Below, piece after piece: positions 2,833 through 63,003 of a stretch of 64,000 nt of DNA. The notes beneath the pieces were generated by a model, which ran no database searches, had not been told where the DNA came from, and worked only from the letters and a program-made list of their open reading frames with translations. Both the position numbers and the translations under genes were made by a program. Source of the stretch: Clostridia bacterium (lineage in GTDB: Bacteria; Bacillota; Clostridia; Oscillospirales; CAG-272); contig JAFTXX010000014.1 in assembly GCA_017461475.1 (NCBI GenBank), forward strand, positions 20,779-84,778. The letters are read 5' to 3'. How positions within the stretch are numbered: the stretch's first letter is position 1; the number at the start of each line of letters is the position of its first letter.

Positions 2833-2842
2833 GGAGGCGGCG

Positions 2843-26245: not shown

Positions 26246-26409
26246 ACGAGTACCTCCTCGATTGTTCAAAAGTACTAAACTTTTGTATTATTGTATTTTG
26301 GGGCTTGACAAATACTCAAACAAGTACTATAATATAGCCAAGAAGTACTCGAACGAGTATAAATGTTTACTTGTACTATAATTATAGTACATAAAAGAGT
26401 ACTTGTCAA
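26238..26409. promoter_or_regulatory. Genetic switch: face-to-face promoters and TACT-N6-AGTA operators
   Basis: TTGACA-17-TATAAT on + at 26305-26333 and on - at 26409-26381; operators tactcatacgagta, tactcaaacaagta, tactcgaacgagta and tacataaaagagta. Confidence 0.85.
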
Positions 26410-26660: not shown

Positions 26661-27290
26661 ATGAAGTTTCCGAGAAAAGTATATTGCATCCGGCATAATG
26701 TAACAAATCGGGTTTATATAGGGAGTAGCTGTCATGTTGATGCGAGATTGAGTGCTCATATGAGTGCTTTACGTAATCACGGGCATCTCGTAGAAGATAT
26801 GCAAAAAGATTTTGATCGTTATGGAGAGGACTTTATGTTTGCGGTGCTTGATGAAATAGGCAGCCCGGAGGAGAAAGAAAAAGAGTATCAATGGATGGAT
26901 AAATATCGCTCCTATATCAGAGGTGTTGGGTACAATTACAAGGATACCCACGTACAAGCCAAGATCAAGACATATCATCTGTTTGACGAAGAGGACGGTC
27001 GCTCGGGTTTACTACGCCCAATACGAGTAAGCGACGAACAGATTGGGGAAATTTACGATCATTCGATACAAACTCGATGGTGTCCGGTATGTAGAACGGG
27101 ATTGGCTATGATAGAAATAAGCCCATATGGAAGGCTACGGGTCAAGTGTCAAAACTGTTCTCATTCTACATCTGCGTATCCCTCCCATATGATTGCATTT
27201 ACGGAAAAGAGTATGGGTACGTTTATTGTCGAGGAGTCTCTTGCAAGGGCTATTCATATGGCGGTTGATGAGTGGAATAAAAAAATATAA
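26661..27290 (+). CDS. GIY-YIG nuclease-like domain fused to a C-terminal zinc finger (Lar-like)
   Basis: VYCIR..VYIGSS..R..H..E..GYN; CPVC..CQNC..WN. Confidence 0.75.
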   Translation: MKFPRKVYCIRHNVTNRVYIGSSCHVDARLSAHMSALRNHGHLVEDMQKDFDRYGEDFMFAVLDEIGSPEEKEKEYQWMDKYRSYIRGVGYNYKDTHVQAKIKTYHLFDEEDGRSGLLRPIRVSDEQIGEIYDHSIQTRWCPVCRTGLAMIEISPYGRLRVKCQNCSHSTSAYPSHMIAFTEKSMGTFIVEESLARAIHMAVDEWNKKI

Positions 27291-42655: not shown

Positions 42656-44737
42656 ATGTACGCTCCGAGATTATATGAAACAGAGGTTGGCAGAGAGACG
42701 GTTCAGGAGTTTCTCGGCTACAACCATAACCTTCGCATAGGCAACGGTGAGTTTTATGATATGAAAAATCTGACGAGCAGGTATTATCCCGTGCTCTCCC
42801 CGAGAGATCGGCGGGGTATCGTGCGGACGGTAGATAACTGCAACGGTCTGCTCGCAAAGGACGAGCTTTGTGTTATTGAGGGGAATACGCTCCGCTACGG
42901 CTCCTTTTCGATGCAGCTTGCCCCTTCGGTGAGCGGCGAGCGGCAGCTCGTATCAATGGGGGCTTATATCTTAGTTTTTCCCGATATGATGTACGTAAAT
43001 ACGTCGGATACTTCGGACCTTGGAAATATATCGGCGGGGAAGTCAGTTTATTCGGCTGTTGAGCTTTCTGTCTGTAACGCCGTGGGTGAGGATATAGGCG
43101 CAATGTATATAACAAAAAACGGGCGCTGCATAGGAGTTGGCGCGAACGCAAGGGAGAAATATCTGGACGAGCTGTATATAGCAGATGAGGAACGGGAATT
43201 TTACTATTTCGGATTCATCGGCAACGGTGTGTCCGGCACACAGATAACATTACCCTTTGGCGGCTTTATGGAAAATACAAGGGTGGCAGATTACGTTATC
43301 GGAGATGAAAGCATCGTGGCTCTCGTACCCGACACAGCAGATTGGAGCGGTAAGCCCTTTCAATGCCTTGCGCCGGGCAAGACTACCGTTACCGCTACAT
43401 TTGAAGATGACGGAAGCTCACAGGTATATACGATAGTTGTACTGAGCATAGACACTCCTCGGGGAGGGGACTACTGGTTAAGATGCGCGGACGATTACGA
43501 AACTGAGGCTTATGTATATTCGGGAGAGAAAGGCGAGTGGGAACAAGTTACCACGTATGTGAAGCTTTCGGTATCGGGAATAGGCGGGCTGTTTTCGGAG
43601 GTTGACAGCTGTAGGTTTTGTATTACCTCGAGCCACTCCGCCTGTAAGAGTCTTATGAAGCTGTATAAGGAGTACACGTACATATCACCAATAAAGTATG
43701 ACACGGATTGGGTGGTCATTCCCGGCAGCTTGTTTATGTGTGACAGGGCAAGTATAACAGGAACGATGACGCTGGACTTTTCTTTGCCCCTTATGGATAT
43801 GGTCTTTGAAAGCGGAAACCGACTGTGGGGCTGTAGGTACGGTAAGAATATTGACGGAAAATTTGTCAACGAGATATACGCGTCGGAGCTTGGAAATTTC
43901 CGCAGCTTTTATTCCTTTCGCGGTATAAGCACTGACAGTTACGCCGTCTCTCTCGGCTCTGACGGAGCCTTTACGGGGGCTGTAAGCTTTCAGGGGAAGC
44001 CTATGTTTTTCAAGAATAACTGCTGTCATACAATTTACGGCGCGTATCCGTCCTCCTATCAGCTTGTAAATAACGGCGACGTGGGGGTAGCGGCGGGCTC
44101 AGGGAAGAGCCTGTGCGTGATAGGAGGTGTTCTTTACTATCACGGCAGAGACGGTGTTTATAGATATAGCGGTGCGGGAAGTGAGATGATCTCGGGAGCT
44201 CTCGGAAAGGGAAACTTTAAAAATGCCGTGGGAGGCTCGTGCGACAGAAAATATTATTTGTCTATGGATGATGCGAATAATGAAGCTGTTCTTTTTGTTT
44301 TCGATACGGTAAACGGAATATGGCATAAGGAGGAGGCTGCCCATATTGAACATTTCGCCGCTTTTAACGGGGATCTGTATTTTATCGGTAACGATCAGCT
44401 GTGTACCATAGGAGGCTCCGCGGGAGAACCTGAGAAGGATATCGAGTGGTTTGCCGAGACGGGACGGATAGGATTTATATATCCCGACAGTCAGTATGTC
44501 GGAAAAATACAACTCAGAATGACCTTGCCTGTGGGATCGAGCGTAAATCTCTACATCGAGTACGATTCGGATGGATATTGGGAAGCTCTCGGCAGTATGG
44601 AGGGGAGAAACTCTGTAAGCTTTTCTATTCCCGTAATGCCTAGCAGATGCGACCATTTTCGGATAAAGCTTTCGGGCATAGGTGAGTGTAAGATATACAG
44701 CATCACCAAGACCTTAGAGGTGGGAGGTGAACTGTAA
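42656..44737 (+). CDS. Putative tail nozzle/stabilisation protein (podovirus-type)
   Basis: 693 aa beta-rich protein in the position of a podovirus tail protein. Confidence 0.6.
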   Translation: MYAPRLYETEVGRETVQEFLGYNHNLRIGNGEFYDMKNLTSRYYPVLSPRDRRGIVRTVDNCNGLLAKDELCVIEGNTLRYGSFSMQLAPSVSGERQLVSMGAYILVFPDMMYVNTSDTSDLGNISAGKSVYSAVELSVCNAVGEDIGAMYITKNGRCIGVGANAREKYLDELYIADEEREFYYFGFIGNGVSGTQITLPFGGFMENTRVADYVIGDESIVALVPDTADWSGKPFQCLAPGKTTVTATFEDDGSSQVYTIVVLSIDTPRGGDYWLRCADDYETEAYVYSGEKGEWEQVTTYVKLSVSGIGGLFSEVDSCRFCITSSHSACKSLMKLYKEYTYISPIKYDTDWVVIPGSLFMCDRASITGTMTLDFSLPLMDMVFESGNRLWGCRYGKNIDGKFVNEIYASELGNFRSFYSFRGISTDSYAVSLGSDGAFTGAVSFQGKPMFFKNNCCHTIYGAYPSSYQLVNNGDVGVAAGSGKSLCVIGGVLYYHGRDGVYRYSGAGSEMISGALGKGNFKNAVGGSCDRKYYLSMDDANNEAVLFVFDTVNGIWHKEEAAHIEHFAAFNGDLYFIGNDQLCTIGGSAGEPEKDIEWFAETGRIGFIYPDSQYVGKIQLRMTLPVGSSVNLYIEYDSDGYWEALGSMEGRNSVSFSIPVMPSRCDHFRIKLSGIGECKIYSITKTLEVGGEL

Positions 44738-44895
44738 TGATACCTCTGACTACTGAAATAAATCCCTTGGGAGCTACGACCGAGCAAAGACAGAACGAGC
44801 TTATCCGTCAGCTTCGTATTCAGAACGAGGAGCTGAAGGTGATAATAAACGATATATACAATGAGCTGAACAACATAAAGGAGGGCAAAGGGTGA
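44737..44895 (+). CDS. Small coiled-coil protein (52 aa, not in the ORF track)
   Basis: GGAGG RBS; overlaps both neighbours. Confidence 0.55.
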   Translation: MIPLTTEINPLGATTEQRQNELIRQLRIQNEELKVIINDIYNELNNIKEGKG

Positions 44896-45953
44896 GCTAC
44901 AAATATCAAAGAGGCGGGACATACAGCTCCCGAAACCGCGATGAGATAGACAAGCTGACAGAGAAATATACAAATAGGGGGGAGTTTGAGTATTCCCCCG
45001 AAAGCGACGAGGCGTTCAAGTCCTACGCGCAGATGATGCGAAGGGAGGGGAGTCTCGCTATGAAGGATACTGTGGGGCAGGCTTCTGCCCTGACGGGCGG
45101 ATACGGCAATTCTTACGCGCAGACGGCGGGACAGCAGGTATTCAATGATTATATAAGCGAGCTTGGAGCGGCTGAGAGCGATTTTTATGACAGAGCGCTT
45201 TCAAGATATAACGCGGAAGGGAATGACATCCTTAGTCGCATCGGCGTTCTTGAAAACAGAGAGACGGCTGACAGGGCGGCGTGGGAGGAAGATTATGCAA
45301 AGGACTATTCCTCGGCTTTAGCTAAGAATGACATTGCGGCGCTTGCTGAGATACTCGGAATAAGTGAGGAAGACTACAAAGAGACCTATGTAAATTCGCA
45401 GAGAACGCCGCTTAGCGAGGAGCAGATACAGGGATATATCAACGCTTTGCAGAATGGAGACACAGCCAAAGGAGATTATTACAGCTACCTTGTGAATGGC
45501 GGCTACGATACCGACGGACTTCTTGATGAGGTTGCGGCAAAAATAGCATCGGGAGAAACACAGGGGCTTGGCATTGAAGGTGAGGTGACATATGATGAGA
45601 ACGGTAATGCTGAGGACGGCAGAACGGTCAAGTCGTCCTATATTACCAATGACAGCGTAAACAACAGAGTAAAAGGACTCAGTAACTATAACGAAGGACA
45701 GAATTTCCATATACAAATGCACGAGAATACTCACGGCTCTGGCGATAATCTCGAAGTGGAGCTCGGTGCGGAGGTGACGGACAATGCGGCACTGACAAAT
45801 AAAGCGAAAAGCTACACGGGACTACTTGCCGACGGTAATACGCTTTACTATATGGCGAACGGCAGAGTCTATAAGGTCGAGCCTCTCGGATGGGGTAAGG
45901 CTGATGAATATAACAAGATCATTGAACATATGAAGAGCTACAAAGGAGCGTAA
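44892..45953 (+). CDS. Putative internal virion/ejection protein
   Basis: AMKDTVGQASALTGGYGNSYAQTAGQQ motif; precedes the giant gene. Confidence 0.6.
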   Translation: MSYKYQRGGTYSSRNRDEIDKLTEKYTNRGEFEYSPESDEAFKSYAQMMRREGSLAMKDTVGQASALTGGYGNSYAQTAGQQVFNDYISELGAAESDFYDRALSRYNAEGNDILSRIGVLENRETADRAAWEEDYAKDYSSALAKNDIAALAEILGISEEDYKETYVNSQRTPLSEEQIQGYINALQNGDTAKGDYYSYLVNGGYDTDGLLDEVAAKIASGETQGLGIEGEVTYDENGNAEDGRTVKSSYITNDSVNNRVKGLSNYNEGQNFHIQMHENTHGSGDNLEVELGAEVTDNAALTNKAKSYTGLLADGNTLYYMANGRVYKVEPLGWGKADEYNKIIEHMKSYKGA

Positions 45954-45956
45954 GCT

Positions 45957-48900
45957 ATGGCGCAAAGAATGAGTGTAGACGAGGCGTGGAAGCGCACGCA
46001 AAAAAGATATCTTTCCACACAGGCAATGGCGGCAAGCCACAATATGTCTGATTTCGAAAAAAAATACAGCTCTGACTATCTGTCGAGCTGGCGTAGATCG
46101 GGAGAGCTTTCGGATTATTATGCCGCTATCGAGAAGCAGTTGAGCTCCGCGAGGACGCTGAGGGACTATTACGAGCTTTACGGGAACGACGAGCAGAAGG
46201 GGTATATTTCTGCCCTTGATGAGGCGATAGGCGGCTACAGCGGCGTTCTGAATGAGCGCAGTAAGGTGGAGGAGCTTTACGGCGCGTATTCATCGGAGGG
46301 GGCGTGGAAGTCTGCCGTTGCTAAAAGTGAGGCGGATATAGCCGAAAATAACCGGTTGCAGGGCTTGAACATCGAGGAGCTTTCGGCGCAGTCTGCTGAT
46401 CTTGGAGAGCAGATACGAACGCTTAATCAGAAGAAAATACGGACTATAAGAGAAGAGGGGCTCACTCAGGATGAGCGCACGGAGTATGATAACCAAATAA
46501 AAAAATTACAGAGTCAGAAAAAGAATATTGACTCCGATATAGAAAAGGCGAATAAATTGACAAGGCTTGGGGAGCTTGAAGCGGTAGAGAATAACGAGGA
46601 TTTTGAGCTCGCCTCTGCCTTTGATGATAGCGTGCAGAGCAGTACATATCGCATTATAAACGGTCTTTCTCTTTACGACGCGAACGTAAGAGAGGGCAAG
46701 CGCATCGAGGAGGACGGATGGCACTATGATGTGGGTCAGAGCTCCGAGGATGCCATCTTTGCGGAGCATATGACATCCGAGGAAAAGAAGCGGTATAACG
46801 CTCTGTATTATGACGACCCCGCAAAAGCCAAGGAATATCTTGACGCTTTAGACCCCATCATAGCGTCGCGTGCGGCTGCCTCGGCGTATCAATACGGTCG
46901 GGAGCATCCCGTTCTCGGTACATTAGCTTCTGTGTACTCAAACGCCACGGGAGCAGTGACGCAGTTCGGCTCGATGGTGAAGTTTGAGGATGTCGGATAT
47001 AATCAATCCGCTAATTTGTCCACCTCTCTGCGCTCGGGGGTATCGTCAGAGATGAGTCCGCTTGGCAGCTTCCTGTATAACACAGGTGTGTCGGCGGCAG
47101 AATCCTTACTTGCGTCAATGGTACCCTATGCGGGCGAGGCTATGCTTGCGCTGTCCTCGGCGGCGTCGACGCAGAATGATATCCTCAGCAGAGGCGGAAC
47201 GGGCGCTCAGGCGATGATAGGCGGTCTTGCCGCGGGCGTGGCGGAGGCTTTCTTTGAGCACGTCTCTCTGAGCTCTCTCCGCTCAATGCAGCCTACCGAG
47301 ATAGTGTCAAGCTTTAAGAGCTTTATGGGTAACGTAGGTAAGGAGATGCTGACAAACGCCGGCGAGGAGGCGGCAACCGAGTTTGCAAACATAATGACAG
47401 ATACGTTTATTATGGGCGAGCTTTCAAGCTTCAATACACTTGCGGATAAATATGCGGCAAAGGGTATGAGTGAGACCGAGGCCATGTGGAATGCCGCTCT
47501 TGCGCTTGCCGGACAGATAGGCGAGGCGGCGGCATCAGGCGCTGTGATGGGTCTTGGCTTTTCGTCGGTTGGAGGAGGTGTCGGTCTTTCGCAAAACTAT
47601 GCGGCGGGTCAAAGCATCATAAATGGCAAGAACGATTTTTTCGTGGATGATGTTTTAAACGATTCGCAGATCCTTTTCAATGATGAAGCCGTGAAAGCCG
47701 CAAAGGACGAGGATGCTGCCTTGATAAAGCAGGCAAAAAAGCTTTCTCAGAAGGTTGCTGAGAAAAAGGACAGCAGATCTCCCGCCCAGGCGATCCGAGT
47801 TGGCGCGTTGGCAAAAGAGGTTATGAAAGAGGAAGTCAAGCTCGTGATGAAGGAGTTGAACGAGACGGCAACGCGGAATGTAGCAAAGGCGGCACAGACC
47901 GCCGAGGCGGAGGGGAACATGGCAACCGCATCGGGGCAGGGCGCGGAGATAAGGCGGAGTAGCGGTCTCCCGATAGTCAGGGCTGAGGGGCAGGAGCTTT
48001 CGGAGATATTTGTGGAGAGGGACGGGGAGGTTGTTTCTCTTGAGGACGTTTCCGTGGAGGACGTCGATCTGGCTGTTGCGTACTCTCTCGCGGTCACTAC
48101 AGGCTCTGTGGAGGCGGCGAACGCCTTTATAGACGCTTATGCCTCCGAGGAGGAGAAGGCTTCTCCCGTGGCGTTCTGGAGCGCGTGGATGGGTATTATG
48201 ACCGACGGGCAAACTCTTCGCACTACAGAGGAGAATATGCAGAGGGCCTTTGCCGAGTATGGAGACCAGCTCAGCCAAGAGGCAAAGCTTGCGGCGTGGC
48301 TTGCGGGGGTGGAGCTGAAGCAGGCGGAGCGCAAGCGTAAGCTTGAAGCGGCAAACTCTGCGAGAATGGCGAGGGAAACATCTGAAAGCTCTGCTTCTGA
48401 GGTATTTATGTATCGAAAAAACGGCAGCTTCACCGAGGATAAATATTTCAGAACTCAAATGGCAAAGTGGGAGCGGCTGAAACACGGCGGATATATTAAG
48501 GTCGGCGAGCTTTCAGCAGAGAGCCCGTTGTGTCAGGTCGGTATGCCTGTCGGAACGCTTCGGTATGATGTTGATAAGCTCAAAAAGAATATGACCGATC
48601 ACGCTGATTATCTTGATGTAGAGCTTCTCAAGCAGATCCCTGATATTATAGCAGATCCCGTAGCTATTAGCGAATATCGGGAAGGCAACACAATAAGCGT
48701 TTTCGGTGACATTTTTGTGGGAGACTCTCCGATGATGGTCGGAGTTACAGTTTCCAAGGATAGAGCGGGAAATACTATCAGCAAGGTCAGAACATACAAT
48801 ACCCGTCGTGACGTAGGCAAGCTGATAACGGATGATACTGTGCTGTATCTTGATAAAAACAAAAAGAGAACCCGAAAATGGTTCCAAGCCTGTGGGATAC

Positions 48901-51900
48901 AAGTCCCTTTAGGGGGAAACACTTTCGGATTCATCCGTAGTATATCACAATTTAATGACGGTGTCAATACCTTCGGTGAAAAAGGTAAAAAAGAAACCTC
49001 ACAGCTCATTGATGCCAAAAGCACCAATGCAACGGTCAATGCCGATTCTGTGGTGGTTCCTACTGATAGTATCCCCCACCTTTCCGAAAATGTCAAGGGT
49101 TATTTTGACGATTCGGCTTTGAAAAACGTCAGGCTTGACGCGAAGCAAAAGGAATTTGTGGCTTTTGCGCGGTTGTTTTCCGATGTGTTCGGGGTAAACG
49201 TTACCTTTGTTGCCTCGGAGAAGGGAAAGCGTAAGGAGAACGGCTCTTACGACCGTAATACCAATACGATCACACTTGATATATTTTCGGGTATTGATAA
49301 TAACGCGAACTACAATGCGGTACAGTCCGCTTTATCAAATACGCTCTCTCACGAGGTCGTACATAATATGAGTGCTGTTTCCCCCGAATATTATGACGCG
49401 CTGAGTGAGTATGTATTTGAAGCTCTCAAGTCTCAGGGAATGGACATAGAAGAGAGAATACAGTACTACATAGAGAATGCGAGAGCCGAGAACAAGAAGC
49501 TGTCAAGAGAGGATGCCATAGAGGAGATCGTGGCTCACGCTTGCGACGGTATGCTGAGAACCTCTGAGACCGTAAGAGAGTTTATGGAAGGCTTCTACGA
49601 CAAGGACAGTAAGGCGGCGAATAAGTTCAGCAAGTTTGTTAAGGACGTACTGAAGCGGCTGAAGAGTGTCTTTGATACGCTTCTCGGAACAAAGGCATAC
49701 TCACAGGAGGCTCGCGCCATCTATAAGGCGGGAGCGGATGCGGTGGCAGAGATACAGAAGCTTTACGACGAAGGCGTTCTTGCTATGCGCGAGGGGAATG
49801 TGGCGAGAAATTATGAAATTGAGAGCAAGAGTGATAAGAGTGAAGAGACTGTAAAAATGTATCAATCTCGCGAAACTTTGGAACAAGCCGCCGATGAAAT
49901 GGAGAAGATCAGTGCTGAGAAATACTTGCAAGACAAATCAAAATACCCTTTTATTCAGGTTATGGATCACACTCCACAGAAGGTTATTGATTCTATGGAG
50001 GGAGGAAAAAACCGTCGTATTTTGATTCGTCGTGATGCTTTATATCTTGCAATCAGAGAGAACGGTGTGCAAGAGGGGCATTACCATGGACTGGGAGCCG
50101 AGGTGATAAAAAAACTGCCTGAATACTTGGGATCTCCAGACGTTATTCTTTCAACTATTGATAAGGATACAGGCAAGGAAAGTAAGAATCGGCGTATCAT
50201 TTTAACAGGTATTGACGGAGCAAACGGTCAGGGAATCGTATCTGTGGAATTTGAGTCAATGAAGGATTTTGAGGGGCATAATGATTATTTTAATATCATT
50301 ATTACCGTCTTTGATCTGCACAAGAATTACCTTGAACGACTTTTCAAAAAACAAGGCGCGATTATTAAGGAACAAAAAGAGAGCCTTGCGCAAGTGAATC
50401 CTCAACTGTATGAGTGGTTGAGAACTATTAACGCAAAACTCTCTGGTAATAGTATACCCGATTCTGCTCAAAAAGTCAAGACCTACGGTGAAAAAAAGGA
50501 TACAAAAAAAGAAGAATCGGCGCAAGTTAATTCCCAAGTCCAATACGAGGGCATTATTAACGCTAACTCTTCTAACGATAGTATATCACAAAACGATATT
50601 TCTGTCAAGGAGAACCGCAAAAATAATTCTGACTCTTCCGTGATGAAGCAAGAGAGAATAACGGTTGATATGAGTGAAACGGAACGGGCCGAAATATTGA
50701 GAAAGGCAAAGATAAGTCCGCCTGCTATTGAAATATCTGAAAATTTCGACGTGGATTTTAAAGAACTTGAAAAGAGCAATTGGAAAGTAGTAAAAAAACC
50801 TATGCTCGAAAAATTGCGTGAGCTTGGTTTCTTAAAATCGTATCGGAGCGACAAGATAGATGTAGAATTTCATTTTACAGGCGAGGGCTTGCGTAAGAGT
50901 ACAAATTCACAAATCTTTGAGTACGGCGGCAGCTTGGCAGATCTTTCCAAGGTCGTTATGAATATGCAGTCAATACTTGATAGTGCAGTTTTACTTGAAA
51001 TACACTCGGATAAAGCAAAGGGGACACCAAAGGAAAATTCCCGACTTTTGCGAACCTACGTATTGTTAAGCGCATTCAGAGAAGGCGAAACGATTACTCC
51101 CGTACAGTTTGAGGTAAAGCAGTACGTAGATAATGACAATCGCCTGTACCTTGCCGTGGCATTAACAAAAATAGAGACAGATGTCATCAGCGATACGGCT
51201 CCGCAAAAAGCGGAACGGACACGCCTGGTATCTGTCTCTGATATAAGTATACCACAATTGATAGAAAAAATCAACCCCTATGATAAAAATTTCTTCAAGT
51301 ACATTCCCGACGAATTCTTAAACAAGGCACAGCTCGAAGCAAAGCGAGAGGCGCTTTCGATTGAGGCAAAAAAATATGGAAAAAAATCTGACAAATTAAG
51401 CCAGGAGCGCATTTCCACGCCTGAGCCGTATTCGGGGAAAAATTTATATACGGACGGAGACATATACAGTTATGATTTTATGACGGCTTTGGCTCCGATG
51501 GTGGTAAAGACAATGCCTTCGTTAAGCTCTGTAAAAAAAGACGGTAAGGTTTCACAAGCTAAAGCTATTGAAGTCGGACTTAAAAACGCTGAAGGATTGG
51601 GTAGAAGGGTCTCCGAAAATCAATATGCGGTGAAGAACGTTTATACGGGCAGAGAGATCGTTCTCGGTAAAAGCGGATTGGGGCATAGCCTTGACGCTTC
51701 AAGCGTTCATAGACTGCGTACAAATGCAAGGCTTGCCGCTATTGGCGGAGACATAGTACAAAATGCGGTGCCGATAAACGGATTAAAGAAGAAAAATTCT
51801 CAGGCAAACGGAACGTATGCTATGGCTTGTCTTGTAAATGACGGAAACGGTTATGTTGTTGCTATAGTTACTGTCGATGAGTTTTCCTCTAAAGCAATTG

Positions 51901-54900
51901 GTATTGACTTTGTAGATATTGCGCATTCCTTAAACGGAAGATTTTTGGCAAAAAAAGAAGATAGCCGGTCTTCCGCAAGGGAATTGGAGTCAGGACAAAA
52001 ATCCGTCTCCACCACAGCTATCTCTGATATAAGTATATCAGATTTTCTCGAAATTGTCAATAGCACACACAAAAGTATTTTATCTGATGACGTGTTGAAG
52101 CATTTGAAAGAAGTAAGACCGAGCGAAGGATATTATTCTGATCAAGTTTTGTTCCAAGAGCGCATTTCTACGCCTGAGCCCTCGGAGCTTCTCGGGGAGC
52201 TTTTCCGTTCGAAGGAAGCTTACAAGAGCTATGGCAAGTACACCGAGAGTCTGAAGAAGTATCAGGATCTTGCCGTTCGTGTGAGAAATCAAGAGAAGCG
52301 TATCTCCGAGATAGACGCTGAGATAGGCAGTCTGAGGAGCGAAAAGAAGCAGAGCGGCAAGGGCGCGCGAATGGACGAGCTCTACCGTATGCGGAGAACA
52401 GCCGAGGGGAAGATCGACGAATACAAAAAGCGTATGTTCGCTATGGAAGCTCGGGAGCTTAGCGCGGTCGTTGCGGCTGAGACTGACAGGGTGAGAAAAG
52501 AGGTTCAGCTTGCTGAGCGTGAGAAATACGCGAAAAAGAGTAAGGAGAGGACGGAAGGTCTCATACGTAAGGAGACGCGCGCCAAGCTCAGGCGAGTGGT
52601 CAAGGAGCTTAACCGTCGTCTGAACCACGGAACAAAGGAAAAGAACGTAAAGGTCGGTATGCAGGACGTTGTAGGAAGCGCCCTTAAGGCGGCTGAGCTT
52701 TTGTTTGCCGATGATATAACCAACGCTGATATTATTGAATACGGCTTTGATCATCTGAGCGACAACGAAAAAAAGCTTGTAGATGAATACAAGCAGTTGT
52801 TGAAGTCCCGTGCGGTGCTTGAGGAGGAGTTGAGTCCTCAAAAGGTGGTTGTAGAAATTGAAGAAAATTCTGAAAAATATGGTGATGTGCAGAAGGATTT
52901 GTGGATAAATGTGGGAAGCGCTAAAAATGCTGATACAAATCACATTTACGCAATTACAAACAAAAAAGAAGAATTGCCCACCCATTACGGCGTGGGTAGC
53001 CCCACAGAAGCGGGTAACTACCTCCAAAACAATCCTTCTAATGTCATTATACCCCATTCTTCCGAAAAAGTCAATACTTCTTCCGAAAAAAATGCGATAC
53101 AGAAGAAGATAAACGGTATTGACTATCGCCTGAGGAAGCTTGACGAGGCGCTGAGGGACCGTTTGGAGGGTATGCGAAGCTTCTATAATTCGGCTGTCAT
53201 TGACGATGCGCTGGACGAGCTTGCGGCGGCGTATTCCGAGCTGAAAAACTCCAAGGACGACTACATAAGGGGAGCCTACGACGAGCTTGTGGCTGAACGG
53301 CTTGAAGGCGCTAAGGCGGCTCTGAGAGGCGTTACGGTACGCCATATGAGTACTGAGCAACTTCGGGAGCTGTACTCTCTTTACAAGATGGTTCTGACGA
53401 CTGTACGCACGTCTGACAAGCTGTTTACCGAGGGCAAAAACGCAAGTGTAGCTGACGAGGCTGCCACTATTGAAAACGAGCTCTTGTCCGATGGCGAGCC
53501 GAAGGAAAAAAAGCTGAAGCTCTTGCAATATCCTGAGAGCTTTGCTTGGAATATGCTCATACCCGCGTATGCGTTTGACATTATTCGATCACATACGCTG
53601 CGTGCGCTTTACAAAAGGCTTGTATCTGCTGAGGGCGTATGGGGCAAGGATGTGGAAGAGGCGCAAAAATTCAAGGTGGATATGGATAAAAAGTATGGAG
53701 CAAATAAGTGGGATACCGACGAGCAGTTCGTTTTTCACACTCCGAGCGGAAAGGAGGGCTCCGTAAGCTTAAATCAGATAATGTCGATATATGCCTATAC
53801 GCTTCGGGGAAAGCAGGCGACGGATCACCTTGACAGGAGCGGATTTTGTCATTCCAAGTCGATAATCGTTAAGGAATCGAAATGGGTAGGCTTGAGGATA
53901 AAGCGCAGCTACACATGGAATCACTCGGCGGTCTGGCGGCTTTCTCCCGAAATAAGGGAGCAGCTGATATCAAAGCTTTCGGCAGAACAGAAGGCGTATG
54001 TCGAGGAGATGCAGAAATATCTTTCCAAGGATTGCGCTAAAAAGGGAAATGAGGTTTCTCGCAAATTGTACGGTATCGAGATATTCGGGGAGGAATTTTA
54101 TTTTCCGATGCATTCGGCGGAGCAATATATATCTGAAAAGGAAAAAAGCAATCCGGGGGCGGTACCTCGCTTGAAAAATTCGGGATTTACGAAAAAAATA
54201 AGTCCAAATTCGACAAGTCCCTTGGTTCTTGATGGATTTACCGACGTATGGGCAAAGCACTGCGCCGACATGGCTGCTTATCACGCCTTTACTTTGCCTC
54301 TTGAGGATATGGCGAGGGTATTTAATCACAGACGGCGAGGGACGGACGGTGCTGTGGAGGGCTCTGTTCAGGCAACGCTCAGCGGGATCTACGGAGACGC
54401 GGCATCAGCATACGTAAAGCGGCTTATAGATGAGCTGAACGGCGGTGTGAGAGTGGAGACTACTGCGGGATTTATGAACAAATTTATGTCTCTGCACAAG
54501 ATGGGCGCTACGGCTATGTCTCTGTCAACACTTGTGCAACAGCCCACGTCGATCTTTCGGGCTATGGCATATATAAATCCTAGGTATTTTATGACTTATG
54601 CTCAAATGACTCCGAGCAAGCACAGGGCGGAGTGGGAAGAGATAAAAAAATATGCTCCTGTGGCAATACTTAAGGAAATGGGCGGATACGATACGGGCGC
54701 AGGCGCGGCTACTGCCGATTATATCAGATCCAAAAGCTATGAGGGCTTTAAGGAAAAAGCGGCTGCTCTGATAAAGGACAGCGCCTACCGAAATAATGTG
54801 ATGTATGCTTTGCCGTCTCTTGCTGATGAGCTGGCGTGGTGTCATATCTGGGCGGCGGTGAAAAAGGAAATAGCCGATACTACAGAACTTACGGAGGGGA

Positions 54901-55610
54901 GCAATGCGTTTCTTGAAGCCTGTGGAGAGCGCTTTACGGATGTAGTTACCCATACTCAGGTATACGATTCTGTTCTTGCAAGAAGTCCTCTTATGCGATC
55001 TAAAGACCCGACCACTAAGATGCTCACAGCCTTCTCGGCGGAGCCTACTGTAGTTACAAATATGGTAGCCTACGGAATTATTGAGGGTAAGCGGGGAAAT
55101 CACGCCTTTGCCGCACGCATCATAGGCAGTTCTGTTGCCACTATGATAGCTAATGCAGCTGTCGTATCGCTGGCTTATGCTGCAAGAGATGACGATGAGG
55201 ACGAGACATTTACCGAAAAGTATATTGAGGCTCTTACAACCGAGCTTATTGAGGGCTTTAATCCTTTGACCTACATTCCGTTTATCAGGGACATATGGTC
55301 TGTTATGCTCGGATACGACGTGGAGCGTACCGATCTTTCTGTCATAGCCGATCTGTGGCGTTCCTTTGAGGGGATGTTCAGCAAGCGGAAGAGTATGTTT
55401 GATAAATTCACCGATCTTATCGGAGATATTGCTAAGCTTTTTGGCTTGCCCGTTGGCAATCTTATGCGTGAGGCAATGGCTATCTACAATATGGTCAAGC
55501 TGTTGATTGGATCTTTCGAAGGAGAGACGACTGACGGAGAGGGTATTGGTAATGCGCTATTGAAGGCGGCGGAAAACGCTGTGCCATTGATCGATAAGCT
55601 AAACTCTTAA
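45957..55610 (+). CDS. Giant polyvalent virion/ejection protein (3217 aa) with a zincin HExxH segment and several MuF-C/LPD3-like domains
   Basis: HEVVH at 49350-49364; discrete AT-richer domains at about 48410-48860, 49860-50370, 50640-51170 and 51430-51950, plus a remnant at 52835-52960; helical scaffold elsewhere. Confidence 0.8.
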   Translation: MAQRMSVDEAWKRTQKRYLSTQAMAASHNMSDFEKKYSSDYLSSWRRSGELSDYYAAIEKQLSSARTLRDYYELYGNDEQKGYISALDEAIGGYSGVLNERSKVEELYGAYSSEGAWKSAVAKSEADIAENNRLQGLNIEELSAQSADLGEQIRTLNQKKIRTIREEGLTQDERTEYDNQIKKLQSQKKNIDSDIEKANKLTRLGELEAVENNEDFELASAFDDSVQSSTYRIINGLSLYDANVREGKRIEEDGWHYDVGQSSEDAIFAEHMTSEEKKRYNALYYDDPAKAKEYLDALDPIIASRAAASAYQYGREHPVLGTLASVYSNATGAVTQFGSMVKFEDVGYNQSANLSTSLRSGVSSEMSPLGSFLYNTGVSAAESLLASMVPYAGEAMLALSSAASTQNDILSRGGTGAQAMIGGLAAGVAEAFFEHVSLSSLRSMQPTEIVSSFKSFMGNVGKEMLTNAGEEAATEFANIMTDTFIMGELSSFNTLADKYAAKGMSETEAMWNAALALAGQIGEAAASGAVMGLGFSSVGGGVGLSQNYAAGQSIINGKNDFFVDDVLNDSQILFNDEAVKAAKDEDAALIKQAKKLSQKVAEKKDSRSPAQAIRVGALAKEVMKEEVKLVMKELNETATRNVAKAAQTAEAEGNMATASGQGAEIRRSSGLPIVRAEGQELSEIFVERDGEVVSLEDVSVEDVDLAVAYSLAVTTGSVEAANAFIDAYASEEEKASPVAFWSAWMGIMTDGQTLRTTEENMQRAFAEYGDQLSQEAKLAAWLAGVELKQAERKRKLEAANSARMARETSESSASEVFMYRKNGSFTEDKYFRTQMAKWERLKHGGYIKVGELSAESPLCQVGMPVGTLRYDVDKLKKNMTDHADYLDVELLKQIPDIIADPVAISEYREGNTISVFGDIFVGDSPMMVGVTVSKDRAGNTISKVRTYNTRRDVGKLITDDTVLYLDKNKKRTRKWFQACGIQVPLGGNTFGFIRSISQFNDGVNTFGEKGKKETSQLIDAKSTNATVNADSVVVPTDSIPHLSENVKGYFDDSALKNVRLDAKQKEFVAFARLFSDVFGVNVTFVASEKGKRKENGSYDRNTNTITLDIFSGIDNNANYNAVQSALSNTLSHEVVHNMSAVSPEYYDALSEYVFEALKSQGMDIEERIQYYIENARAENKKLSREDAIEEIVAHACDGMLRTSETVREFMEGFYDKDSKAANKFSKFVKDVLKRLKSVFDTLLGTKAYSQEARAIYKAGADAVAEIQKLYDEGVLAMREGNVARNYEIESKSDKSEETVKMYQSRETLEQAADEMEKISAEKYLQDKSKYPFIQVMDHTPQKVIDSMEGGKNRRILIRRDALYLAIRENGVQEGHYHGLGAEVIKKLPEYLGSPDVILSTIDKDTGKESKNRRIILTGIDGANGQGIVSVEFESMKDFEGHNDYFNIIITVFDLHKNYLERLFKKQGAIIKEQKESLAQVNPQLYEWLRTINAKLSGNSIPDSAQKVKTYGEKKDTKKEESAQVNSQVQYEGIINANSSNDSISQNDISVKENRKNNSDSSVMKQERITVDMSETERAEILRKAKISPPAIEISENFDVDFKELEKSNWKVVKKPMLEKLRELGFLKSYRSDKIDVEFHFTGEGLRKSTNSQIFEYGGSLADLSKVVMNMQSILDSAVLLEIHSDKAKGTPKENSRLLRTYVLLSAFREGETITPVQFEVKQYVDNDNRLYLAVALTKIETDVISDTAPQKAERTRLVSVSDISIPQLIEKINPYDKNFFKYIPDEFLNKAQLEAKREALSIEAKKYGKKSDKLSQERISTPEPYSGKNLYTDGDIYSYDFMTALAPMVVKTMPSLSSVKKDGKVSQAKAIEVGLKNAEGLGRRVSENQYAVKNVYTGREIVLGKSGLGHSLDASSVHRLRTNARLAAIGGDIVQNAVPINGLKKKNSQANGTYAMACLVNDGNGYVVAIVTVDEFSSKAIGIDFVDIAHSLNGRFLAKKEDSRSSARELESGQKSVSTTAISDISISDFLEIVNSTHKSILSDDVLKHLKEVRPSEGYYSDQVLFQERISTPEPSELLGELFRSKEAYKSYGKYTESLKKYQDLAVRVRNQEKRISEIDAEIGSLRSEKKQSGKGARMDELYRMRRTAEGKIDEYKKRMFAMEARELSAVVAAETDRVRKEVQLAEREKYAKKSKERTEGLIRKETRAKLRRVVKELNRRLNHGTKEKNVKVGMQDVVGSALKAAELLFADDITNADIIEYGFDHLSDNEKKLVDEYKQLLKSRAVLEEELSPQKVVVEIEENSEKYGDVQKDLWINVGSAKNADTNHIYAITNKKEELPTHYGVGSPTEAGNYLQNNPSNVIIPHSSEKVNTSSEKNAIQKKINGIDYRLRKLDEALRDRLEGMRSFYNSAVIDDALDELAAAYSELKNSKDDYIRGAYDELVAERLEGAKAALRGVTVRHMSTEQLRELYSLYKMVLTTVRTSDKLFTEGKNASVADEAATIENELLSDGEPKEKKLKLLQYPESFAWNMLIPAYAFDIIRSHTLRALYKRLVSAEGVWGKDVEEAQKFKVDMDKKYGANKWDTDEQFVFHTPSGKEGSVSLNQIMSIYAYTLRGKQATDHLDRSGFCHSKSIIVKESKWVGLRIKRSYTWNHSAVWRLSPEIREQLISKLSAEQKAYVEEMQKYLSKDCAKKGNEVSRKLYGIEIFGEEFYFPMHSAEQYISEKEKSNPGAVPRLKNSGFTKKISPNSTSPLVLDGFTDVWAKHCADMAAYHAFTLPLEDMARVFNHRRRGTDGAVEGSVQATLSGIYGDAASAYVKRLIDELNGGVRVETTAGFMNKFMSLHKMGATAMSLSTLVQQPTSIFRAMAYINPRYFMTYAQMTPSKHRAEWEEIKKYAPVAILKEMGGYDTGAGAATADYIRSKSYEGFKEKAAALIKDSAYRNNVMYALPSLADELAWCHIWAAVKKEIADTTELTEGSNAFLEACGERFTDVVTHTQVYDSVLARSPLMRSKDPTTKMLTAFSAEPTVVTNMVAYGIIEGKRGNHAFAARIIGSSVATMIANAAVVSLAYAARDDDEDETFTEKYIEALTTELIEGFNPLTYIPFIRDIWSVMLGYDVERTDLSVIADLWRSFEGMFSKRKSMFDKFTDLIGDIAKLFGLPVGNLMREAMAIYNMVKLLIGSFEGETTDGEGIGNALLKAAENAVPLIDKLNS
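48855..48967 (-). ncRNA. Embedded antisense sRNA cassette 1
   Basis: TTGACA-17-(TGA)TATACT at 48967-48939; terminal stem gaatccgaaa/tttcgggttc; U-tract. Confidence 0.75.
48987..49096 (-). ncRNA. Embedded antisense sRNA cassette 2 (degenerate -10)
   Basis: TTGACA-17-GATACT at 49096-49068; stem aggaaccaccacag/ctgtgaggtttct; U6. Confidence 0.6.
50371..50479 (-). ncRNA. Embedded antisense sRNA cassette 3
   Basis: TTGACT-17-TATACT at 50479-50451; stem agagagttttgcg/cgcaaggctctct; U-tract. Confidence 0.75.
50504..50608 (-). ncRNA. Embedded antisense sRNA cassette 4
   Basis: TTGACA-17-(TGA)TATACT at 50608-50580; stem agaagagttagcg/cgccgattcttct; U7. Confidence 0.78.
51164..51274 (-). ncRNA. Embedded antisense sRNA cassette 5
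   Basis: TTGATT-17-(TGG)TATACT at 51274-51246; perfect 10-bp stem agagacagat/atctgtctct; inner tccgc/gcgga hairpin; U-tract. Confidence 0.75.
51401..51427 (+). repeat. 27-bp direct repeat copy 1 (QERISTPEP)
   Basis: ccaggagcgcatttccacgcctgagcc; second copy at 52154. Confidence 0.85.
51950..52060 (-). ncRNA. Embedded antisense sRNA cassette 6
   Basis: TTGACA-17-(TGA)TATACT at 52060-52032; stem agatagc/gctatct; U7. Confidence 0.75.
52154..52180 (+). repeat. 27-bp direct repeat copy 2 (QERISTPEP)
   Basis: ccaagagcgcatttctacgcctgagcc; 25/27 identical to 51401-51427. Confidence 0.85.
52962..53074 (-). ncRNA. Embedded antisense sRNA cassette 7
   Basis: TTGACT-17-TATAAT at 53074-53046; stem agaaggattg/caattcttct; inner hairpins; U-tract. 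Confidence 0.75.
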
Positions 55611-55619
55611 AAATACGCT

Positions 55620-55657
55620 GGGGGGACTCCCATATGAGTCCTCCCTTTTGTTATAAT
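55620..55657 (+). promoter_or_regulatory. Late promoter motif 3
   Basis: GGGGGGACTC-N22-TATAAT. Confidence 0.75.
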
Positions 55658-55686
55658 TAAGGCATTAGGATCAGTAGGAGGAAAAA

Positions 55687-57318
55687 ATGAAGATAATTCA
55701 CGAAATTACCCTTGATGTGTCGCGACAGGGTGTACAATGTACCGTCCCGATAACTCAGCACGATGCGGGGATCCACGAGCTTATCGTCCATCTTCGTAAC
55801 GGCGCAAAGCCGATAAAGTTCTTTGCGGGGGATGAGGCGACCCTTTATCTCGGCACCGACAGCTTTGAGCCTGTGACCGTTTACACCGAGAACAGCGCCT
55901 ACCCGAATACCTTGGTATACACGCTGTCACCCTTCGCATCCCAAACCGAGGGAGAGGTCAGGGCTGTATTTCAGATATACAAGGGCTCCGAGAGGGGATG
56001 TTATACTCCCGAGATAGCTTTTTCTGTAAAAAAGGATACTACCTCGGGCTCTAAAGTGTTTGAGTCATCGCCATTTTCGGCTGTTATAAAGGCTCAGGCG
56101 ACAGCCGAGGCGGCGGCATCGAGAGCGGAGGAGGCGGCGGAGGCGGCGGAAAGCGCCGCTAAGGAAGCGACCAACGTGATAGGATCAGCCAAAGGTGACA
56201 GTGCTTTTATCCGTTATTCTGCAAACGCAGACGGAACGGACTTTACCGAGGAGCGTAGCGAAGGGCAGGATTACATAGGCTTTGCCACAGGTCAGACAGC
56301 GCCTACGGATAAGAGCGACTATACTTGGGGATATATCGGTGAGAGCAGTGCAGGTAGCTCGGGACGGTTTGTGCTATTTTCTTTTGACGGGGGAGAGATA
56401 GACATGTCCGCGGCTTTGGTCAAATATGGTGATAAAGGTGTTCAGATACTCAACGGTCAAAGTGTTTTGTTTGATGCCTCGGAATATGAGGATGTTTCAG
56501 AAATCTTAATAATTGTTGTTGACGGCTCTTTAAATGCTTTAGGAGGCGAAGCATATTTATACGATAAAAACGGAGAACAATTGGATGGTGCATACGAGAT
56601 TTCAGCCAACGTTGATGGCGAAACTCTTTGTGTAGATAATCTTCAAGACGTTTACAGCGTTTTTATCAAATGTACTGAAACGGGTGATTCAAGCGGTTCA
56701 AGCGACACAAGCCGACGTGTATTGTTTACATTCAACGCAGGAAAGAGTGCAGCGACACAGTGCGAACTTATATTCGGTGGAGAGTCCTCCCATACTCTCA
56801 CGATAGAAAACGGTCAAACTTTGGTTTGGGATTTAACGGATATGCTAAACGGTGATTACGAAACCGAAATGAGCGTGACCATCACGGACGGCGACGGAAC
56901 GCTATACAAAGGCGAGGTACAATTGTTCGATAGCAACGGCTCAACGCTATCCACGGAGAGCTTCGAGGCAGAGAGCGGCGCATTGGTTAGCTTGAATAGT
57001 ATCGCTAACGCTTCTGTTGTTTATATCAAAGTGAAAGAATTACATACCGTTACTGTGACACTGAGAAGCGATTATGGGTTAGGTTATATTGCGTATGTTG
57101 AGACAAATGACGGCAAAACGTACTCAAATAATTGTGACGAGGGGAACACATTTACACTATCGGTAGAAGATGGTGATAGTTTGTATTTTTATACGAATGG
57201 TGGTAGCGGAGTTTTACTAACAGATTTAACCACTGACGAAATCTTGTGTAATTACGAAACTCAATATACCCTATGCATTGACGGTGATATGACGCTTGAA
57301 ATGTATGCAAGTTCCTAA
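55687..57318 (+). CDS. Putative tail fibre/receptor-binding protein
   Basis: BppU-like N-terminus, Ala-rich coil, IRYSANADGTDF motif, duplicated acidic beta domains. Confidence 0.65.
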   Translation: MKIIHEITLDVSRQGVQCTVPITQHDAGIHELIVHLRNGAKPIKFFAGDEATLYLGTDSFEPVTVYTENSAYPNTLVYTLSPFASQTEGEVRAVFQIYKGSERGCYTPEIAFSVKKDTTSGSKVFESSPFSAVIKAQATAEAAASRAEEAAEAAESAAKEATNVIGSAKGDSAFIRYSANADGTDFTEERSEGQDYIGFATGQTAPTDKSDYTWGYIGESSAGSSGRFVLFSFDGGEIDMSAALVKYGDKGVQILNGQSVLFDASEYEDVSEILIIVVDGSLNALGGEAYLYDKNGEQLDGAYEISANVDGETLCVDNLQDVYSVFIKCTETGDSSGSSDTSRRVLFTFNAGKSAATQCELIFGGESSHTLTIENGQTLVWDLTDMLNGDYETEMSVTITDGDGTLYKGEVQLFDSNGSTLSTESFEAESGALVSLNSIANASVVYIKVKELHTVTVTLRSDYGLGYIAYVETNDGKTYSNNCDEGNTFTLSVEDGDSLYFYTNGGSGVLLTDLTTDEILCNYETQYTLCIDGDMTLEMYASS

Positions 57319-61866: not shown

Positions 61867-63003
61867 TTACAGGTCCTTTATGGCGTTCTTAAGCCATTCG
61901 GTATCTGTATGGGTATATGTATTCAGTGTCGTTTCTATCTGTTTATGTCCGATTATATCTTGCAGCGCTTTGGGATCGACGCCTTTCTTTGCGCACATTG
62001 ATGCGAACGTATGGCGGCAGGTATGGGGATTTCGTTTCTTTATCTGCTCCTCCGTATATCCCGCGCTCTCCAGAGCCTTATAGTACACTCTCTTTCTGAA
62101 ATTCTCGCTATTGAATTTTGATCCCGTTGCCGAGGAGTAGAGGTATTCTCCCTCCGAATTGAGAAGTCTCTCGAGGATCATCGCCACCGAGTCGGGGATG
62201 GGGATGACACGGTTTTTTCCTTTTTCGGTCTTATTTCCTCCGTGGAGGCATCCGTCGTAGTAATCGTTTTTTTTCAGGGACAGGAACTCATCTATTCTCA
62301 GCCCCGTATAGCAAAGGAAGAGCACCACGCCTATTCTGAGGTCCTGTGTGGCATCATAATGTTTTCTGAGGGCTTCTATCTCCTCATCACTGAAACGCTC
62401 CTTAGAGGGCGGTTTTTTAGCTGTTACCGAGCAGAATACGGCGTAGTCCTTATCGATCACGTCGTTCTGGACTCCCCACTGGCATATCTTTGAGGCGAGG
62501 AGGGCTATTTTTGAGACGGTCGAGTGGGATTTGCCCTGTTCGACGGCTTTGTTCAATATCTCCTGTATCTGCTGTGTTTTTATATCGCTGAGTCGGGTAT
62601 TCTCGAGGGGGCGCAGAAATCTCCACGCCATCTCATACGTTCCTATCCCTTTGGGTGTCAGTGTGGCGAAGTGTGTCTCGCTCCACATTCTGTACGCCTC
62701 TCCGAAAGTGACTTTAAAAAGCGCTGTGACGTTCCCTTTTATATTGATATTATCGAGCGCTATTTCTGCCTCGGTCTTTGTGGCGTAGGTGCCGTAGGTG
62801 ATACGCTGTCGTTCTCCGTCTCTATCGACGTATATCCTGACGAGGTAGGGTTTTCTTCTTCGTCCCGGGAGCTTGGTGATCGTGCCCATACCGTTGGCTC
62901 GTTTGAGCTTTTTGGGCTTGGGGGTGGACAGCAGCTTTTTACCGCAGTATCTGCAATATACGCTGTCGTCCTCTATTTCGTTTTTACATTTTTTGCAGAT
63001 CAT
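61867..63003 (-). CDS. int: Tyrosine integrase (second copy)
   Basis: Translation identical to 21681-22817. Confidence 0.95.
   Translation of the reverse strand: MICKKCKNEIEDDSVYCRYCGKKLLSTPKPKKLKRANGMGTITKLPGRRRKPYLVRIYVDRDGERQRITYGTYATKTEAEIALDNINIKGNVTALFKVTFGEAYRMWSETHFATLTPKGIGTYEMAWRFLRPLENTRLSDIKTQQIQEILNKAVEQGKSHSTVSKIALLASKICQWGVQNDVIDKDYAVFCSVTAKKPPSKERFSDEEIEALRKHYDATQDLRIGVVLFLCYTGLRIDEFLSLKKNDYYDGCLHGGNKTEKGKNRVIPIPDSVAMILERLLNSEGEYLYSSATGSKFNSENFRKRVYYKALESAGYTEEQIKKRNPHTCRHTFASMCAKKGVDPKALQDIIGHKQIETTLNTYTHTDTEWLKNAIKDL

Follow-up and report, generated by a model that had tools for sequence, protein, structure and literature searches.

Several mobile elements carry cis-antisense RNAs with constitutive promoters that are directed against a harmful gene, among them the type I toxin-antitoxin pairs txpA/RatA and bsrG/SR4 of Firmicute prophages, and IS10 RNA-OUT; RatA and SR4 overlap the 3' end of their target, and RNA-OUT, a closed hairpin of about 70 nucleotides (nt), overlaps the 5' end. 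The OOP RNA of phage lambda is 77 nt long. The Rickettsia palindromic elements are hairpin DNA of about 100 bp that is tolerated in frame in protein genes, and orphan toxin/immunity cassettes of polymorphic toxin loci were reportedly described by Zhang et al. in 2012. As outlined in PMC5869508, OOP comes with a promoter and a hairpin terminator of its own; its overlap with the 3' end of cII is 52 nt long, and its action on the mRNA takes an RNase III-dependent route. The polyvalent proteins are a class described by Iyer et al. 2017 (PMC5512222), in whose account the MuF-C domain has the PBECR RNase fold. Here we analyse seven cassettes, built like small-RNA (sRNA) genes, that lie backwards inside one giant phage gene in a 64,000-nt stretch of DNA from a Clostridia bacterium (contig JAFTXX010000014.1), which we call the window and whose numbering is used throughout. 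The giant gene is an unbroken open reading frame (ORF) of 3217 codons (9.7 kb) at 45957–55610 on the plus strand, and its product is a polyvalent virion/cargo protein, typical of that class. Judged from sequence, the cassettes are probably genuine transcribed small-RNA genes. We give a probability of roughly one half to the fuller reading, namely that they are cis-antisense sRNA genes of the lambda-OOP/RatA kind, each tied to a domain module and acting by a cis-antisense mechanism.

Seven minus-strand cassettes in a giant phage gene

The peptide (D/N)-S-I-(S/P)-x5-V-(N/K) occurs seven times in the giant protein, and a promoter scan found each copy to be a near-consensus promoter on the minus strand, with TTGAC(A/T), 17 bp and TATA(C/A)T and, in many units, TG ahead of the -10 box. 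The hexamers match the consensus at 10–11 of 12 positions in six units and at 9 of 12 in cassette 5, with a 17-bp spacer. Codon by codon, AGT ATA (Ser-Ile) is the reverse complement of the TATACT -10 box, (T)GTC AA(T/G) (Val-Asn/Lys) is that of the TTGAC(A) -35 box, and TCA CAA (Ser-Gln) is TTGTGA ahead of the -10 box on the minus strand, such that the promoter reads S-I-S-Q-x4-V-N/K in the sense frame and the U-run reads as lysines. About 7 nt past the -10 box a purine opens a stretch of 62–71 nt whose 5' and 3' ends pair, often around two inner hairpins, and a run of five to seven U follows. The closed hairpin and U-run are present in 7/7 units, the whole unit measuring 69–77 nt. All seven lie on the strand opposite the giant ORF, in frame, and are translated through. 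A preliminary description of the interval 48962–50608, which lies wholly within the ORF, had recognised four sRNA cassettes; their gene-like build is borne out, and the gene holds seven of them rather than four.

The exact cores were scored against dinucleotide shuffles (z-scores in Table 1). Among 4794 overlapping 68-nt antisense segments of the giant gene, cassettes make up six of the eight most stable that do not overlap. Cassette 4, whose core is shorter (-19.9 kcal/mol), falls outside the top 14. Two other very stable 68-nt minus-strand segments of the gene, 52169–52236 (-28.0 kcal/mol) and 48101–48168 (-27.0 kcal/mol), have neither a recognisable promoter nor a U-run. Features that the detector did not require recur across 40 cassettes: a -16 motif (T in 38, G in 27, T in 30 and G in 34), a T-tract 12–15 nt upstream of the -35 box (21–28 cassettes) and a purine at the predicted +1 position (40/40). 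A TRTG motif is typical of Gram-positive promoters.

Such units are far more numerous than chance would give. The promoter pattern TTGAC-N18-TATACT, allowing one mismatch, is matched 17 times in the window, where 0.94 matches would be expected; the cassette units account for seven, the other ten are found on both strands beyond the giant gene, and the phage's own intergenic promoters are built like those of the cassettes. A divergent pair of consensus promoters (TTGACAA..TACTATAAT, both strands) occupies 26305–26409, between a CI-like repressor gene (25580–26269, minus strand) and the early genes, and is probably the phage immunity switch; from its position, this type of promoter is really used by the phage. 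A strict detector, which demanded at least 5 of 6 matches for each hexamer, together with a 17-bp spacer, a closed hairpin at -15 kcal/mol or below and a T-run, returned 14 matches on both strands of the whole 2,061,081-base genome. Twelve of these are six cassettes in each of two copies of the giant gene, cassette 5 being missed owing to its TTGATT -35 box, and two are intergenic on another contig, C58. The latter (G000:C58:51783 and 55687, plus strand) each consist of a consensus promoter and a 45–51-nt hairpin, which starts TAAAGGCAAAG and is followed by a T-run, ahead of a gene, and resemble paired leader attenuators of host genes, with one leader motif in common.

Codon choice, RNA structure and relatives

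Codon usage was examined in 15 motif matches selected on the peptide alone (SI-x6-V[NK]) from 16 ORFs of at least 700 residues. The Ser codon is AGT in 15/15 (background frequency 0.160), Ile is ATA in 14/15 (0.348) and Val is GTC in 15/15 (0.177), and the base preceding the GTC is T in 13/15. Where the peptide varies (S-I, I-I, R-I or T-I; N or K after V; S, P or A after I), the DNA retains TAnnnT and TTGAC. Synonymous sites were compared in eight loci (the window and its relatives L019–L025) that align without gaps over 150 codons of MuF_C and cassette 1, counting the fraction of identical codons among pairs with the same residue. This fraction is 793/2057 (0.386) across the 108 codons of the MuF_C domain, where successive thirds give 0.385, 0.393 and 0.379, and rises to 655/842 (0.778) in the 42 codons of the cassette and to 392/433 (0.905) in the RNA body. 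Third-position identity rises likewise from 0.387 in the domain to 0.712 in the cassette, while amino-acid identity is 0.708 and 0.74, respectively. A purely peptide motif would leave synonymous codons free; here the codons are fixed, and synonymous identity is 0.778–0.905 as against 0.386. On this comparison, the cassettes are under selection at the nucleotide level. The idea that the repeats are in-frame peptide linkers only was dropped on the results of the promoter scan, the synonymous sites and the codon choice.

The predicted RNAs differ widely in sequence, the bodies of different cassettes being only 55–62% alike. In seven distant RNAs of one type (type A), the hairpin GGC-AAUUGSA-GCC is invariant (7/7) and is the sole sequence in common. 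Their closing stems differ in sequence yet pair, in 87.6% of cells as against 28.6–58.1% when the partners are slid by 1–3 columns, and 8 of 15 pairs show changes on both sides. The covariation score is 0.489 versus 0.280 for shuffled alignments, a value reached by 0/500 shuffles. Twelve close cassette copies vary little and show compensatory change in 4/20 pairs. In these two homology-defined sets the hairpin is followed by a U-run in 12/12 and 7/7 cases. ARAGORN found no tRNA or transfer-messenger RNA. YUNR loop motifs and anticodon-loop mimicry, judged by eye, were set aside as holding too little information to count.

A collection of 5.8 billion proteins contains 98 other giant proteins of 1997–4513 residues that are homologous to the giant protein and carry MuF_C, ART-PolyVal, LPD3, PBECR and similar domains. 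Across all 99, the motif SI[SPA]-x5-V[NK] occurs 70 times, as against 1.77 in shuffled sequences (at most 6), a 40-fold enrichment; 49/99 proteins have at least one copy, the maximum being 8, and spacings other than x5 give 0–3 copies. Of 400 further genomes of the class that were searched in six frames, 10 contain the MuF_C segment, at 21–33% identity, and in 9/10 the homologous ORF has at least one antisense cassette; no cassette was found in the tenth genome's locus (L012), an ORF of 262 codons and the weakest match of the ten. Closer relatives on contigs of metagenome-assembled genomes (MAGs; L019–L029, 69–80% identity) have at least one antisense cassette in 11/11 loci. With a relaxed detector, the window and L013–L029 give 27 antisense and 0 sense matches in ORFs of at least 700 residues. 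Twelve further matches fall outside such ORFs; three are weak plus-strand matches elsewhere in the window, and nine come from loci without an ORF of that length at the site and all lie opposite the homologous frame. The cassette at L017:9277 is homologous to cassette 5, and in the broken ORF of L027 one copy has a -10 box without A2 (TGTACT). Three loci were found in JGI metagenomes, one of them probably a duplicate of L026. IMG/VR yielded no relative by protein query and 0 matches to a 27-nt RNA-core pattern, and GenBank phages gave no match in tblastn with either MuF_C-plus-cassette segment.

Orphan cassettes, domain modules and the surrounding phage

All seven cassettes fall in the shuffled middle part of the giant protein (residues 969–2372), and their coordinates are given in Table 1 with those of the neighbouring domains and linkers.

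Table 1. Positions of the cassettes, MuF_C-type domains and linkers in the window; energies and z-scores refer to the exact cores.
Feature	Position	Strand	Promoter	Predicted RNA	Core, match or peptide
MuF_C (PBECR RNase-fold) domain 1	48588..48869	+			residues 878–971, Pfam E 1.3e-15
Cassette 1	48861..48967	-	48967..48939, TTGACA-17-TATACT, TG-extended	~48931->48861	66 nt, -26.3 kcal/mol, z -4.25; sense peptide KKRTRKWFQACGIQVPLGGNTFGFIRSISQFNDGVN
Shared linker 1, GTCAATACCTTCGGTGAAAAAGG	48963..48985				sense peptide VNTFGEKG
Cassette 2 (orphan)	48987..49096	-	49096..49068, TTGACA-17-GATACT	~49060->48987	68 nt, -24.3 kcal/mol, z -2.25
MuF_C/PBECR-like domain 2	50076..50378	+			MuF_C E 6.9e-6, below cut-off
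Cassette 3	50374..50479	-	50479..50451, TTGACT-17-TATACT	~50443->50374	65 nt, -29.1 kcal/mol, z -6.64
Shared linker 2, GTCAAGACCTACGGTGAAAAAAA	50475..50497				sense peptide VKTYGEKK
Cassette 4 (orphan here)	50504..50608	-	50608..50580, TTGACA-17-TATACT, TG-extended	~50572->50504	62 nt, -19.9 kcal/mol, z -3.75
Cassette 5	51167..51274	-	51274..51246, TTGATT-17-TATACT	~51238->51167	z -4.57
Cassette 6	51950..52060	-	52060..52032, TTGACA-17-TATACT	~52024->51950	z -2.73
Cassette 7	52962..53074	-	53074..53046, TTGACT-17-TATAAT	~53038->52962	z -3.54

RNA 1 ends at 48861 and domain 1 at 48869, RNA 3 at 50374 and domain 2 at 50378; from this near-coincidence, each unit fills the linker just behind a domain. 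Pfam finds MuF_C twice in the giant product, with domain 1 as the best match. The second, scanned as a segment alone, scores 26.6 bits, just below the 27.6 cut-off, and also matches PBECR2 (E 7.9e-4). Cassettes 5 and 6 stand behind weak LPD3-like matches (E 1.3e-4 and 7.4e-4, below cut-off) and cassette 7 behind a stretch of no known family, which argues against an antidote specific to one toxin. The domains of the giant protein thus comprise MuF_C twice, weak LPD3-like matches twice and an HExxH region, and phrog_22978 (PHROGs) matches its C-terminal 750 residues (2432–3181). BLASTP alignments to the homologues end in clusters at residues 1000–1010 (17), 1030 (10) and 1510–1520 (11) and start at 1040–1090; there are further pile-ups at 1270–1340, a region free of cassettes. 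A zinc-peptidase-like module with an HEVVH motif (49098–49886, residues 1048–1310) separates cassette 2 from MuF_C domain 2. Pfam gives it no match above noise, no cassette stands behind it, and it is the part most widely common to the homologues, being covered by 87–89 alignments.

As the preliminary description had stated, cassette 2 comes directly after cassette 1, and cassette 4 after cassette 3, without an intervening domain. Cassette 2 starts about 20 nt, and cassette 4 about 25 nt, from the -35 box of the cassette before it. Both retain promoter (with GATACT as the -10 box of cassette 2), hairpin and U-run. The linker said to be shared by the two junctions is likewise where it was placed, at 48963–48985 and 50475–50497, with 19/23 bases identical; a degenerate form of it, GTCAANACCTNCGGTGAAAAA, matches the window twice, where 100 shuffles give an expectation of 0.00, and linker 1, read on the minus strand, forms the T-rich sequence that immediately precedes the -35 box of cassette 1. 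The relationship noted between cassettes 3 and 4 holds on direct reading: GCGCAAGTGAATCCTCAA and GCGCAAGTTAATTCCCAA, at 50388 and 50520, agree at 15/18 bases, ACTATTAACGC and ATTATTAACGC, at 50424 and 50553, at 10/11, and the sequence between these stem blocks differs. Translated, the blocks read AQVNPQ...TINA and AQVNSQ...IINA, and linkers and blocks all share one codon phase.

It had been suggested that the orphans would be found behind an intact domain elsewhere, which proved right for cassette 4 and not for cassette 2. The cassette 4 peptide has 10 relatives among the 98 homologues, of which six are tails of the cassette-3 type. The four closest (P0079 at 77%; P0078, P0082 and P0083 at 58%; all over 35–36 residues) have a cassette-4-type unit directly behind a domain. 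By Pfam this domain is MuF_C in P0083 (residues 2043–2135, cassette 2137–2172) and in P0078 (1836–1928, cassette 1930–1965), and that of P0079 has no Pfam match, P0082 having been left out of the scan. Cassette 2 has no relative among the 98 homologues (blastp-short, E at or below 0.01) and finds only itself among all proteins of 1769–5630 residues in the 5.8-billion-protein collection (E at or below 10). For comparison, the cassette 3 peptide matches 28/98 homologues. Tandem arrangements recur: motif pairs 43–58 residues apart occur seven times in the 99 proteins, two of them in the giant protein, and L022 holds three cassettes. L028, on a short MAG contig, holds four in a row (155–650) where a homologous ORF ends. 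Of these four, two are of the 'QACGIQVPLG' (QACGIQ) family and two of a 'CCUGUUUUAAC' type that is also present at L027:10280, with a similar loop at L026:9039. Neighbouring copies in L028 are near-identical in DNA and read in different frames through a one-base indel, an anecdotal case given the short contig and broken frames.

The giant gene sits in a temperate phage with genes for an integrase, a CI/LexA-like repressor, an anti-repressor, RecE/RecT, SSB and the small and large terminase subunits; portal and major head genes lie upstream of it, and an internal virion protein gene immediately before it. The integrase and CI-like repressor imply that a lysogenic state exists in which silencing would matter. 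A GIY-YIG homing-endonuclease-like ORF (26661–27290; PHROGs E 1.7e-13) heads the early region. The phage, of about 40.2 kb, is present twice in tandem on its 122-kb contig, C44 (window 20,9xx–64000), with copies of the giant gene at C44:69342 and C44:109528, an offset of 40186, and integrase ORFs of equal length at 21681–22817 and 61867–63003. The duplication may reflect a prophage in tandem, or else end-to-end assembly of a concatemer or circular element.

Competing explanations and comparison with known systems

If the cassettes are cis-antisense sRNA genes, host RNA polymerase would make RNAs of about 70 nt whenever phage DNA is in the cell, probably including lysogeny. Each RNA, being perfectly complementary to the giant mRNA where a module ends (its 3' end), would pair there and lower the stability or translation of the message, as OOP does for cII and RatA and SR4 do for the toxins of Bacillus prophages. 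In a lysogen, a gene for potentially harmful enzyme domains would be kept quiet or have its dosage trimmed. Cassettes 2 and 4 may have lost their domain, or had it replaced, through module shuffling.

Several points weigh against this account. A single RNA over the ribosome-binding site would be a simpler silencer than seven at module ends. In only 22/33 cassettes does the antisense strand fold more stably than the sense strand (Wilcoxon p = 0.018; L024:12315 and L027:12340, with a weak promoter or no frame, left out), a count that divides into 20/21 outside the QACGIQ family and 2/12 within it, where the sense strand is the more stable in 10/12. When the intervals are drawn loosely to include flanks, the minus-strand z-scores are only -0.34 to -2.28. 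Rfam, searched with both strands of 44000–57000 at E up to 1, returned only a chance small nucleolar RNA match outside the gene. Among listed sequencing runs, those that hold the stretch are three DNA runs from a single study, which may be its source, and no RNA run. Complementarity of more than 13 nt to any other phage transcript was not found in the window, such that only the cis target is evident. The per-column Mann-Whitney test of synonymous identity, domain versus cassette, gives p = 9.5e-9, and this and the other p-values are overstated because the related sequences are not independent; the comparison of domain and cassette is made within the same sequences. Low synonymous divergence could also come from frequent gene conversion instead of RNA function, and the one codon phase of all cassettes that lie in large ORFs and have a 17-bp spacer (26/26) is also compatible with common descent or with a role in in-frame recombination.

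The last of these touches on a different explanation, that the cassettes are recombination joints, promoter-like linker patches for in-frame module shuffling by, for example, RecE/RecT, whose promoter activity is incidental. This would account for the single codon phase of 26/26 cassettes, for homology between relatives stopping at the V-N/K codons and for tandem orphans resembling by-products of exchange, and RecE-like and RecT-like genes are present. We nevertheless find it unlikely, since it leaves unexplained every sub-element of the promoter, including the TGTG at -16 and the rigid 17-bp spacer (70 copies at x5 versus 0–3), the constant closed hairpin with its U-run, and the sharp synonymous step from 0.38–0.39 in the domain thirds to 0.905; in addition, RNA bodies that are 55–62% alike offer little homology. 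The preliminary description had instead seen the extra RNAs as kept in the manner of orphan immunity genes of polymorphic toxin loci. That analogy fails, there being no immunity proteins and no separate orphan ORFs. Its RNA counterpart, in which a prophage uses module-specific immunity RNAs to knock down matching modules of superinfecting relatives and the orphans cover the variants of rivals, strikes us as rather improbable. Cassettes do travel with modules, as the clustered BLASTP alignment ends and starts indicate, cassette 4 relatives are attached to domains in P0078, P0079, P0082 and P0083, tandem orphan copies recur (7 motif pairs; L022 and L028), and a temperate phage whose cassettes 3 and 4 share stem blocks around differing sequence would suit such a role. 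On the other hand, cassette 2 has no partner in the proteins searched, cross-pairing requires near-identity in nucleotides, which is checkable for few loci, and the cassettes would hit the phage's own gene equally. We put forward with similar reserve the broader notion that polyvalent effector modules are two-part units, a domain with its own antisense RNA, in which the promoter would be linker, RNA 'lock' control and in-frame swap joint at once; orphans would be locks that outlasted the swapping-out of their domain, and from a prophage they could then silence the modules of rivals, an RNA-based immunity that works module by module on top of the protein arsenal.

Other explanations concern the product of the cassette. 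The RNAs might be partners of the RNase-fold MuF_C/PBECR domains, as a pseudo-substrate antidote or as RNA packaged with the protein. The link of MuF_C end to cassette persists at 20–32% domain identity in 9/10 genomes, the GGC-AAUUGSA-GCC hairpin is invariant in 7/7 distant copies, and RNase or RNA-binding roles are predicted for MuF-C in the account of Iyer et al. (PMC5512222). This is quite unlikely, with cassettes 5–7 standing behind other domains and an AlphaFold2 model of the domain with cassette 1 being uninformative at a mean pLDDT (predicted local distance difference test) of 46.8. That there is no RNA gene at all, only a conserved peptide linker or cleavage motif or a sense mRNA hairpin that pauses ribosomes, is very unlikely and largely refuted: the region is translated, the peptide motif is 40-fold enriched (70 versus 1.77) and the sense strand of the QACGIQ family folds at least as well as the antisense strand, but codons are fixed in 15/15, 14/15 and 15/15 copies and synonymous sites are frozen, N/K after V and S/I/R/T before I alternate in a way that is sensible only at the DNA level, L028 reads near-identical cassette DNA in two frames, and a sense hairpin accounts for neither promoter nor U-run. 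Extremely improbable, finally, is the use of the promoters for leaderless mRNAs of small antisense proteins. The QACGIQ family has an ATG 4 nt past the -10 box that opens a long antisense frame, but the other six cassettes of the window and the distant type-A copies lack a start codon at this site, and the hairpin and U-run fall about 70 nt downstream, inside the putative ORF. In the window this ATG lies at 48935–48933 (minus strand), with an antisense frame of about 140 codons that is probably a shadow frame.

Should the antisense RNAs indeed be made, one phage gene would host seven complete RNA genes, an extreme case of dual coding, and the widespread S-I-S-Q-x4-V-N/K 'peptide motif' would really be a promoter read backwards, such that annotation pipelines and domain databases take RNA-level for protein conservation. 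They would add a regulatory layer to polyvalent proteins, the largest anti-defence toolkits of phages and conjugative elements, hint at how polyvalent modules swap in frame, and offer a ready set of compact parts, each with promoter, hairpin and terminator, that can be translated through. The full-text literature searched, which does not cover subscription journals, yielded no report of an RNA gene within a polyvalent gene, and a backward small-RNA gene array inside a giant phage gene has apparently not yet been described.

Measured against the known systems, the host gene resembles the polyvalent proteins as presented in PMC5512222, being giant and multi-domain with MuF-C/PBECR modules in the virion block; in the main text of that paper the terms 'linker', 'promoter' and 'RNA gene' are absent, and embedded antisense RNA genes are no part of the family as described there. 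Polymorphic toxin loci have in common with it the modular, recombining effector ends and the left-over orphan units downstream, but their orphans are separate coding fragments and protein immunity genes, whereas those here are RNA-like, antisense and read through in frame. The Rickettsia elements are one repeat family with no promoter or terminator, whereas the cassette bodies are unrelated in sequence and share a gene-like architecture. The giant protein, of 3217 residues, soluble and multi-domain, is not the small hydrophobic peptide of a type I toxin-antitoxin system, and cassettes that are 55–62% alike, each with its own promoter and terminator, do not match a type III (ToxI-like) arrangement. 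RatA, SR4 and RNA-OUT differ in that they target small membrane peptides or a transposase, are not translated within the target and occur singly, not in arrays. No relation to OOP was found in sequence or in Rfam (44000–57000, E at or below 1). The cassettes are similar to OOP in size class, and in form they are like OOP as characterised in PMC5869508: a short phage RNA with its own promoter and terminator, antisense to a protein gene. Unlike OOP, which is single and mostly outside the coding region, the seven units lie wholly in one ORF, translated, at domain junctions and shuffled with the modules. The arrangement is unusual among cis-antisense RNAs in being an array, in its in-frame translation at domain joints and in the retention of the promoter as an apparent peptide motif.

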